From a virus (lineage: Duplodnaviria; Heunggongvirae; Uroviricota; Caudoviricetes), in IMG/VR virus record IMGVR_UViG_2654587792_000035, positions 1 to 7,341 of that record: a DNA stretch of 7,341 bases. One strand, given 5' to 3'. This document shows, in pieces, positions 1,983-2,519 of the stretch. Both the position numbers and the translations under genes were made by a program. A model generated the notes under the pieces. The model ran no database searches. It had not been told where the DNA came from and worked only from the letters and a program-made list of their open reading frames with translations. Positions within the stretch are counted from its first letter, which is position 1; each line of letters starts with the position of its first letter.

Positions 1983-2171
1983 TCAGTCAGATTTGGTTCG
2001 TTCCAAGGTTTGCAACGAGAGCTTTTTCCTGTGCTCTTTAAGGAATTTCTCAAGAGCAAAAGCACATGGCGCGAATCTTTCTGATTCATGCTCTATCTTT
2101 CTGCGCCGTCTTTTCCGTGCCGGTGATAATGTTTTGGTCAATTCTTTATCGGTCATTGTGTTGTCCTGCAT
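1983..2171 (-). CDS. Hypothetical small basic protein (62 aa), second gene of the leftward operon; low confidence
   Basis: ORF lies downstream of the RHH gene on the same strand and upstream of the - strand terminator. It contains an arginine/lysine run (ARKRRRRK), has a weak RBS and many rare codons (AGA, AGG, ATA, CGG). Could be a real accessory gene or a chance ORF. Confidence 0.25.
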   Translation of the reverse strand: MQDNTMTDKELTKTLSPARKRRRRKIEHESERFAPCAFALEKFLKEHRKKLSLQTLERTKSD

Positions 2172-2213
2172 AGCAATGCGCCGTAATACCTTACACCACG
2201 GCGCTGATGGTGA

Positions 2214-2519
2214 TTACTCTGGTTCTTTGGTCTTGCGACGCTGGAGTTCTTCGCGTGCAACGGTGACAAGCTGCCCGATTTCTTCCGCTGCTTTGATGCC
2301 GATTTGTTCGACCTTAGCCAGGGCATCCAGTGACGACACAAGGGGATTTTCTCCGCTGCCTTCTGCTTGGCGGCGGGCTATTTCTCCGCGCATGGCGGTT
2401 ACGATAAATCCGGCATTGCTTTCGCCGTCCAGCTTAACGGATTCCATCCCTTGCATAACATCTAGTGGGACTCTGACAGTTGTCAGTTGTGATTTTGCGT
2501 TTTTGTTAGCCGTTGCCAT
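2214..2519 (-). CDS. Ribbon-helix-helix (Arc/MetJ/CopG-like) DNA-binding protein with C-terminal extension (101 aa); candidate repressor of the satellite early operon
   Basis: Strong RBS on the - strand (AGGAG, 8 nt before the ATG at 2519). N-terminal segment TTVRVPLDVMQGMESVKLDGESNAGFIVTAMRGEIARR aligns by eye with the Arc pattern LRWPREVLDLVRKVAEENGRSVNSEIYQRV (beta-strand, helix A, G-x-S-x-N turn, helix B). Transcribed divergently from the early operon across an operator-bearing intergenic region. The antisense 272-aa + strand ORF (1879..2697) covering it was rejected. Confidence 0.7.
   Translation of the reverse strand: MATANKNAKSQLTTVRVPLDVMQGMESVKLDGESNAGFIVTAMRGEIARRQAEGSGENPLVSSLDALAKVEQIGIKAAEEIGQLVTVAREELQRRKTKEPE

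Follow-up and report, generated by a model that had tools for sequence, protein, structure and literature searches.

How are Gram-negative phage-inducible chromosomal islands (PICIs) kept silent, and does a protein repressor take part? The founding PICI paper called a Gram-negative repressor 'unclear', and the literature on the PICI/P4 family names AlpA activation and RNA immunity as the controls. Here, we analyse an Escherichia coli chromosomal island of 7341 bases (IMG/VR record IMGVR_UViG_2654587792_000035; 'the window' below means this whole stretch), inserted between yljB/cspD and clpS, in which a gene for a 101-amino-acid (aa) ribbon-helix-helix (RHH) protein lies on the - strand, divergent from a rightward operon that begins with an Icd-like (P4 Kil-like) gene and runs to the primase gene. 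An earlier note on this DNA had proposed that the RHH protein may be the island's master repressor and that such a protein repressor would be a different control logic for the family. We find that the protein has what appear to be its own operators over both divergent promoters, which bears out part of that proposal, and that it is probably, judging from sequence comparison, the missing repressor of these satellites. The word 'master' proved too strong: two further layers, a candidate antisense RNA and a read-through frame coupled to alpA, share the locus.

Four likely operator copies over two divergent promoters

The start codons of the RHH and Icd-like genes are 197 bases apart, and this interval holds GTGTGTTTCA twice (2541 and 2586) and, at 2609, its reverse complement; exactly three copies occur in the 7341 bp, all within 78 bp (2541-2618). 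Together with a conserved weaker copy, they make up four copies (O1 to O4) of a likely operator, GTGTGTTTC, that bracket the -10 elements of two divergent promoters (Table 1). O1 and O2 flank the -10 of the putative leftward promoter of the RHH gene (P_L), and O3 and O4 flank that of the rightward promoter of the replication operon (P_R). Spaced 20-25 bp apart in alternating orientation, the four sites form two palindromes, O1+O2 and O3+O4.

P_R is a good sigma-70 promoter, with TTGACG at 2581 and TAACAT at 2604, and its -35 TTGAC is kept in all related loci, while the TGTATA(A/C)T of P_L is conserved across operator alleles. O1 occupies the same position in all loci and varies in sequence with the RHH allele. 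A scan of the window found no operator motif in the promoter regions of alpA and int.

Operator sequence changes with the predicted beta-strand

When the family members are aligned, the predicted beta-strand shows discrete sets of residues (alleles), while the remaining protein is conserved. Loci for these alleles were gathered from contigs taken at one genome per species and from exact-protein look-ups. Eight alleles, spread over nine genera, are each matched by a repeated motif of their own, found at four constant positions upstream of the start codon: QLTTVRV, the allele of the window, with GTGTGTTTC; KQISIRI (locus L021) with TGTGATTC; QSLTARI with TGTAAG; QQLNARF with TGGTATTC; QQINARF with TGGGATTC; QALKARV, found in EcCICFT073, with GTGGCCCAC; Q(L/V)KN(I/V)RI with GTGTGTATTT; and QMKNIRF with GTGTGC.ACAG. 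Promoter hexamers and spacing stay constant across these alleles. If one mismatch is tolerated, the matrix of motifs against loci is block-diagonal in rough outline only, since single-base differences separate several of the motifs.

Which protein does the operator follow? Loci of Xenorhabdus, Photorhabdus and Serratia carry the window's operator together with an RHH N-terminus 72-81% identical to that of the window, at 29-35% identity in AlpA and ~25% in the integrase, and with no Icd-like protein detectable by tblastn. Conversely, operators differ despite 99% identity in the primase (L015), 92% in the Icd-like protein (EcCICFT073) and 93% in the RHH C-terminus (L015, L021). The operator sequence thus tracks the RHH N-terminus and not AlpA, the Icd-like protein, the integrase, the primase or the RHH C-terminus. 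For three or four separate sites to change in concert, a binding factor must have changed its specificity alongside them, and among the candidates only the RHH N-terminus fits; from these sequences we strongly infer that the RHH protein binds the four sites. The other candidates, AlpA, the Icd-like protein or a helper protein, are taken up below with the remaining alternatives.

A 16.6-kb contig of Xenorhabdus vietnamensis (NZ_MUBJ01000038.1) holds two RHH modules of the same operator type (L010, L011), ~4.6 kb apart and in opposite orientation.

Table 1. Features of the window discussed in the text (positions count from its first base)
Feature	Position	Strand	Evidence or remark
Tyrosine integrase	1-1239		Pfam/PHROG assignment
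alpA, activator/excisionase homologue	1659-1868	+	Pfam PF05930, E 5e-16; RefSeq coordinates
eta-like frame, 272 codons	1879-2697	+	begins 10 nucleotides after the alpA stop, behind GGGGAG
Intrinsic terminator-like hairpin and T-run	1886-1915	-	ends the RHH/small-ORF transcript
Small basic open reading frame (ORF), 57 aa (62 aa from 2171)	1983-2156	-	RefSeq WP_157918692.1; phrog_21027
RHH gene, 101-aa YlcI/YnfO family protein	2214-2519	-	ORF; RefSeq WP_000179579.1 in identical islands
Predicted C-terminal extension, aa 57-101	2214-2351	-	predicted long amphipathic helix 59-97 and basic tail
Predicted N-terminal RHH DNA-binding domain, aa 1-56	2352-2519	-	AlphaFold model and sequence
O1, GTGTGTTTCA on +	2541-2550		exact repeat; directly downstream of the P_L -10
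P_L -10, TATACT (inferred)	2550-2555	-	read from sequence; upstream T-rich
O2, GAAATACAA on + (reverse complement of TTGTATTTC)	2566-2574		conserved weaker copy; -35 position of the leftward promoter
P_R, TTGACG-17 nt-TAACAT	2581-2609	+	consensus scan; serves the Icd-like-to-primase operon
O3, GTGTGTTTCA on +	2586-2595		spacer between -35 and -10 of the rightward promoter
O4, TGAAACACAC on +	2609-2618		abuts the -10 and covers the start region of the rightward promoter; palindrome with O3
Candidate cis-antisense RNA	2632-2732	-	extended -10 TGGTATGAT (2732-2724), two stem-loops, U-rich tail
Icd-like (P4 Kil-like) gene	2717-2920	+	NCBIfam NF033153, 68.6 bits; RefSeq coordinates
Two small genes between Icd-like gene and primase		+
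D5/P4-alpha-type primase	3521-5353	+
SSB, DUF1441 small-terminase-like protein, one further ORF	3' of primase	+

A predicted ribbon-helix-helix head on a conserved body

The RHH gene has a ribosome-binding site (GGAG, 2531-2528), and both - strand ORFs that the earlier note had listed (2214-2519, 101 aa; 1983-2171, 62 aa) are present, with the RHH gene divergent from the Icd-like-to-primase operon as described there. Its product matches the 42-position N-terminal model of NCBIfam NF041551 (YlcI/YnfO family) over residues 9-50 at 63.2 bits, against a cut-off of 30, and phrog_6522 from end to end. For residues 1-56, an AlphaFold model built on a broader alignment gives strand-helix-helix at a mean confidence (pLDDT) of 93; modelled at full length (pLDDT 78), the protein has an extended N-terminus, helices at 19-28 and 35-54, and a single long helix 59-97. 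The N-terminal domain is laid out as a beta-strand at about aa 10-17 (SQLTTVRV), helix 19-28, the turn G32-E-S34 and a helix at 35-52, that is, a strand and two helices in ~45 residues, with a G-x-S/T/N turn and a strand of alternating polar and basic residues followed by Pro. The strand end Arg-x-Pro (SQLTTVRVP) and the Gly-x-Ser turn are typical of Arc and Mnt, and in the family alignment E33 is invariant and R16 and P18 nearly so. The RHH call, originally made from the sequence alone, is upheld by the family match, the model and the turn, and the fold is established at the level of a confident model, with Pfam-level membership not shown. Foldseek of the full-length model against PDB gave no usable match, such fold searches being swamped by the long helix, and sequence searches of PDB found no RHH protein, yielding only the borderline match of the C-terminus described below.

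The 101-aa protein has 216 homologues spread over the Enterobacterales, with full-length relatives (~100 aa) in Escherichia, Salmonella, Citrobacter, Klebsiella, Enterobacter, Yersinia, Serratia, Edwardsiella, Xenorhabdus and Photorhabdus. The family is narrow: an exhaustive search of representatives yielded only 36 clusters and no bridge to Arc. Between about a tenth and a third of the complete genomes of E. coli carry the gene, which also occurs in capsid-forming PICIs of Enterobacter. One protein, P0088, was considered as a fusion of the RHH protein with the small ORF and rejected, being a gene call over-extended at its N-terminus.

Among E. coli alleles, the ratio of nonsynonymous to synonymous polymorphism (pN/pS) is 0.35-0.57 in codons 1-40 and 0.05-0.09 in codons 41-98. 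Fast N-terminal codons and a slow remainder suggest, on this sequence variation, a diversifying DNA-reading head on a conserved body.

A nested antisense frame and a candidate antisense RNA

alpA is convergent with the RHH gene, and directly 3' of it begins a long eta-like frame whose course is antisense to the small ORF and the RHH gene and continues across the operator region. In 14 of 16 diverged loci this phase, in which third codon positions face third positions, stays open over 237-635 codons; in ten related loci it is in frame with the Icd-like gene and ends at its stop, as in the nested eta/kil layout of P4. Within the RHH gene this openness is unremarkable, the probability of an open frame, given the protein sequence, being 0.3-0.45 per locus. 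The intergenic part behaves differently: the eta frame has no stop in 8 of 13 loci, against 4-8 stops in the other two frames, and the probability of such an open stretch by chance is 0.002-0.037 per locus. On the sequences compared, this is a clear case of a functional gene, that of the RHH protein, nested antisense in a frame kept open by selection.

The transcript of the RHH gene and the small ORF would end at a - strand terminator, which the earlier note had also seen: a hairpin at 1915-1896 of 8 bp, six of them G-C, followed by TTTGTTTT. EcCICFT073 has an equivalent hairpin with CTTTGTTTT. As the element has no T-run on the + strand, alpA transcripts should read through it.

The segment 2632-2732 of the - strand probably encodes a candidate cis-antisense RNA of ~83 nucleotides over the Icd-like ribosome-binding site. 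The RNA is complementary to that site and to the start codon and has two predicted stem-loops (2717-2682 and 2681-2646), with compensatory changes in 14 of their 23 pairs. G-U pairs number 41 on the - strand and three on the + strand, and pairing is 93.5% versus 82.2%, in a comparison that favours the - strand because the structure had been predicted on it. The segment in the window folds at -37.1 kcal/mol (z -4.87). Moreover, the Icd-like leader is conserved more widely than the RHH gene, and many genomes match only 2637-2716. An Rfam scan (cmscan) of both strands at E<=1 returned nothing, and no RNA of the P4 CI/C4/IsrK type was found; the Rfam families C4 and isrK are those that pick up CI/seqA relatives.

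A proposed mechanism

We consider it reasonably probable that the 101-aa protein represses the replication operon and its own gene in the manner of Mnt and is bypassed by read-through driven by AlpA. The proposal builds on the computed fold, sites, covariation and open frame; the binding, the sign of regulation, the oligomerisation, the RNA and the bypass enter it conditionally. RHH dimers of the Arc/Mnt type would read the 9-10 bp site GTGTGTTTC(A) through their N-terminal beta-ribbon. Occupancy of O3+O4, which enclose the -10 of P_R, would keep the replication operon off, and occupancy of O1+O2, which enclose that of P_L, would make the repressor autoregulated. The C-terminal helix most likely links two dimers, which would allow cooperative filling of the two operator halves in the manner of P22 Mnt, and in the quiescent island the antisense RNA would probably serve as a second brake, limiting translation of the Icd-like gene from transcripts that escape.

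On arrival of a helper phage, alpA would be activated and AlpA would act on its own promoter. The alpA transcript, translated through the eta-like frame, would then cross the repressor gene antisense and enter the replication operon regardless of P_R, while convergent transcription from alpA would lower synthesis of the repressor. Induction would thus probably proceed without direct inactivation of the repressor. Such a bypass by read-through reconciles the published dependence on AlpA with the presence of a repressor. Taken one step further, and only tentatively, the 850 bp may hold a three-layer switch on both strands, made of an allele-specific repressor, a cis-antisense RNA and an eta-like frame translated only from the helper-activated alpA promoter.

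Several observations weigh against the proposal of a bypassed Mnt-like repressor. The operator and the beta-strand codons are adjacent, so that their co-inheritance is partly plain linkage, and in Erwinia L008 and L012 (record titled Martelella alba) the sites are direct rather than inverted and the open eta frame is absent. In the window itself, the eta frame stops 20 nucleotides before the Icd-like ATG, and eta-frame products match no protein family in Pfam or PHROG and give no sign that the product itself functions. P_L has no recognisable -35 and was not called by the consensus scan. Curated Pfam RHH models match below threshold, PF07704 in 26 of 32 members, with a best E of 0.001 (16 bits; cut-off 28), and PF01402 in one member (E 0.003). 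Profile comparison (hhalign) with Arc and Mnt is in register but weak, with probabilities of 1-9%; homology to Mnt is not supported, at 1% over 14 aligned columns. Lastly, short forms that lack the C-terminal helix retain the four sites, so the helix is not essential for the layout.

Alternative explanations

A rather unlikely alternative, which departs from the proposed repressor in degree and not in mechanism, is that the RHH protein binds the sites without being the switch that silences the island: it would be a narrow autoregulator or an immunity-type determinant directed mainly against incoming or co-resident islands of the same allele, with quiescence due to lack of AlpA and to the antisense RNA. 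AlpA alone induces EcCICFT073, which carries a short RHH homologue; specificity alleles number at least eight, with as many as six related places per genome; and the brake at the RNA level is conserved far more widely than the RHH gene. Nevertheless, O3 and O4 lie on the promoter of the replication operon in every allele, which is hard to explain for a pure autoregulator.

A further alternative concerns the C-terminal extension, which the earlier note had put at ~55 aa and suggested as a sensor or helper-interaction domain. In the model it amounts to about 47-49 aa beyond the RHH fold and forms the one long helix 59-97, with a heptad-like hydrophobic pattern in 3-4 spacing. It is the most conserved and slowest-evolving part of the protein (the 0.05-0.09 given above), with L60, S62, S63, L64, L67, E71, I73, G74, E91 and R95 invariant across genera, and islands whose integrases and primases are unrelated share one type of it. 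The helix is absent from a natural short class of 59-62 aa, which keeps an identical basic tail; for example, the 59-aa protein of EcCICFT073 corresponds to a loss of residues 51-92. That a helper-phage protein binds the extension to lift repression, as with Stl of the Staphylococcus aureus pathogenicity islands (SaPIs), would suit a separate, well-conserved module in satellites that are generally, as in the SaPIs, derepressed by helper proteins. We regard this as improbable, given that Stl-type sensors are diverse whereas the extension evolves slowest and is identical in type across islands of nine genera, that the short class without it includes the inducible EcCICFT073, and that a single amphipathic, heptad-like helix is predicted. 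The most economical reading of the model is probably that of an oligomerisation helix joining two dimers across a 24-bp operator, as in Mnt or TraM.

In a profile search, aa 60-81 of the extension (2277-2340), SSLDALAKVEQIGIKAAEEI, matched, at the borderline (E 0.0027), the helix-hairpin-helix motif found in archaeal Hef/XPF. We keep this as a lead only, as no Pfam model of that motif matches and the modelled helix is unbroken.

Very unlikely, in our judgement, is a type II toxin-antitoxin or abortive module, as the earlier note had also entertained, with the RHH protein as antitoxin and autorepressor, its C-terminus binding the toxin and the small basic protein as that toxin. The gene order, with a small co-directional ORF behind the RHH gene and one terminator for both, would be in keeping with such a module, and the weak Pfam match is to an antitoxin family. 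The small ORF itself is indeed co-directional and basic, with a start that was probably misplaced: the ATG at 2156, which RefSeq uses, has an AGGA Shine-Dalgarno sequence 7 nucleotides upstream and the 62-aa start at 2171 has none, which makes 1983-2156 (57 aa) the better gene model. It lies 57 nucleotides downstream of the RHH gene with a ribosome-binding site of its own, an unusual coupling for a toxin-antitoxin pair. Its core, ERFAPCAFALEKFLKE, is conserved, the basic N-terminus is variable with indels in frame, and pN/pS is 0.55-0.69, based on few substitutions. All 51 of its protein clusters come from Escherichia or Shigella; beside RHH genes, including full-length ones, it is missing in seven non-Escherichia genera (Xenorhabdus, Photorhabdus, Enterobacter, Klebsiella, Erwinia and Serratia among them) and in L021, and in L015-17 an 84-aa ORF stands in its place. 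EcCICFT073, conversely, has the small ORF but no RHH C-terminal helix. Pfam and PADLOC gave no toxin or defence family for the small ORF, whose sole match is phrog_21027, a family without assigned function, and PADLOC returned nothing for the RHH protein either; moreover, the operators cover the divergent replication promoter too. The small ORF is probably a real accessory gene and not an obligate partner of the RHH gene.

An arginine-rich stretch, ARKRRRRK, is found at aa 13-20 of the small ORF (2100-2120); it resembles the RNA-binding arginine-rich motifs of lambdoid N/Nun proteins.

Binding of the repeated sites by some other factor of island or host (the Icd-like protein, a helper protein or AlpA, which is a DNA-binding activator of island genes), with RHH proximity incidental, is likewise very unlikely, as the site sequence follows the RHH N-terminus and not AlpA, the Icd-like protein, integrase or primase, the sites of the window and EcCICFT073 are unrelated at 92% Icd-like identity, and the motif does not occur in the alpA or int promoter regions.

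Comparison with known systems

In the immI region of phage P22, Mnt consists of an RHH domain and a C-terminal helical tetramerisation domain and is autoregulated from operators that overlap divergent promoters, and the small antisense RNA sar is active there too. Like the repressor proposed for the island, Mnt (and Arc) of P22 is an autoregulated RHH repressor divergent from the promoter it controls, with palindromic operators over both promoters. In contrast to Mnt, with half-sites about one helical turn apart, those of the island are separated by 20-25 bp; the operon controlled here would be that for satellite replication, instead of an antirepressor, and the gene lies antisense inside another frame.

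SaPI Stl and Rpr of Gram-positive PICIs likewise are encoded divergently from an excision-replication operon. The analogy with Stl drawn by the earlier note goes no further: int is not co-directional with the repressor gene here, int and alpA being on the opposite strand and converging on the RHH gene; an AlpA activator pathway is present; and Stl proteins have a helix-turn-helix fold. YlcI (DLP12) and YnfO (Qin) of E. coli K-12 share the N-terminal domain of the NF041551 family. Both are short forms, whereas the island protein has an additional conserved C-terminal helix and an identifiable operator set. The plasmid TraM and omega repressors differ in serving conjugation and plasmid copy/partition control and in the lengths and spacings of their sites.

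In P4, the longer frame eta, which has its start upstream of the constitutive early promoter, contains kil as its final part, and the immunity region is laid out as PLL, the vis/alpA homologue, eta with nested kil, PLE and the CI RNA (PMC10111431). The island shares with P4 an alpA homologue followed directly by a long frame that begins upstream of the early promoter and finishes either as a 65-67-aa Kil/Icd-like gene or shortly ahead of it, and a primase operon downstream. Where P4 has the CI RNA, the island has a putative repressor protein with its set of four likely operators, plus a candidate cis-antisense RNA, both encoded on the opposite strand. The comparison rests on layout and on PMC10111431, as a tblastn search of the phage collection with the Icd-like protein did not recover P4. 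By these comparisons, the closest working analogue is P22 Mnt in immI and the closest structural scaffold is the P4 eta/kil region, and the island system is a member of neither by sequence.

The island and its relatives

By Pfam, PHROG and RefSeq assignments, the window has the hallmarks of a Gram-negative PICI: int, alpA, a primase operon, packaging/capsid accessory genes and a site that prophages do not use. Gene order is that of the prototype, EcCICFT073, with 78% identity in the integrase and 92% in the Icd-like protein.

EcCICFT073 carries the module as well (L025 8623-9033; NC_004431.1 1380242-1380652), with a 59-aa short RHH form, a 57-aa ORF and its own operator motif, GTGGCCCAC. Its RHH, small-ORF and Icd-like genes bear the locus tags C_RS30120, C_RS30800 and C_RS30125 among C_RS069xx neighbours; such late-series tags suggest genes that were added at re-annotation, and the RHH and small-ORF genes were probably missing from the original annotation on which the PICI papers relied. 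In that literature, AlpA by itself is described as inducing EcCICFT073 and as activating its own promoter, and a genomic survey found PICI genes to be mostly unidirectional, with no mention of - strand genes of this type. The searchable literature yielded nothing on the function of YlcI/YnfO or on an RHH regulator in satellites. The RHH module of EcCICFT073 has apparently been overlooked.

Elsewhere in the island, a near-perfect 16-nucleotide inverted repeat, ACGGCTGTTTTTTCTT / AAGAGATTACAGCCGT, follows the integrase stop codon directly (1246-1278, +). At ~6307-6570, between the SSB and DUF1441 genes, most close relatives carry an extra 2.5-kb segment (compare L002 15306-18105) with a gene for a fusion of a ClpP-like prohead protease and a major capsid protein; the window and NZ_AP027844 are without it. 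The final ORF (7054-7341, +) runs for 95 aa to the end of the window with no stop codon inside it; it matches phrog_1561 and, weakly, BrxA in PADLOC (E 0.0085, 14 bits).

Significance

What is new here, at the level of sequence, is the set of four likely operator copies and the covariation of operator and beta-strand. The RHH gene is a concrete and easily tested repressor candidate, and it links the control of PICIs to the eta/kil scheme of P4, with a protein repressor where P4 has an RNA. Furthermore, matched repressor/operator pairs with single-base differences in specificity could serve studies of RHH recognition or be used as orthogonal parts. If the three-layer switch holds true, convergent transcription and translation would override termination and silence the repressor without an anti-repressor, and the beta-strand/operator alleles would define immunity groups of satellites.

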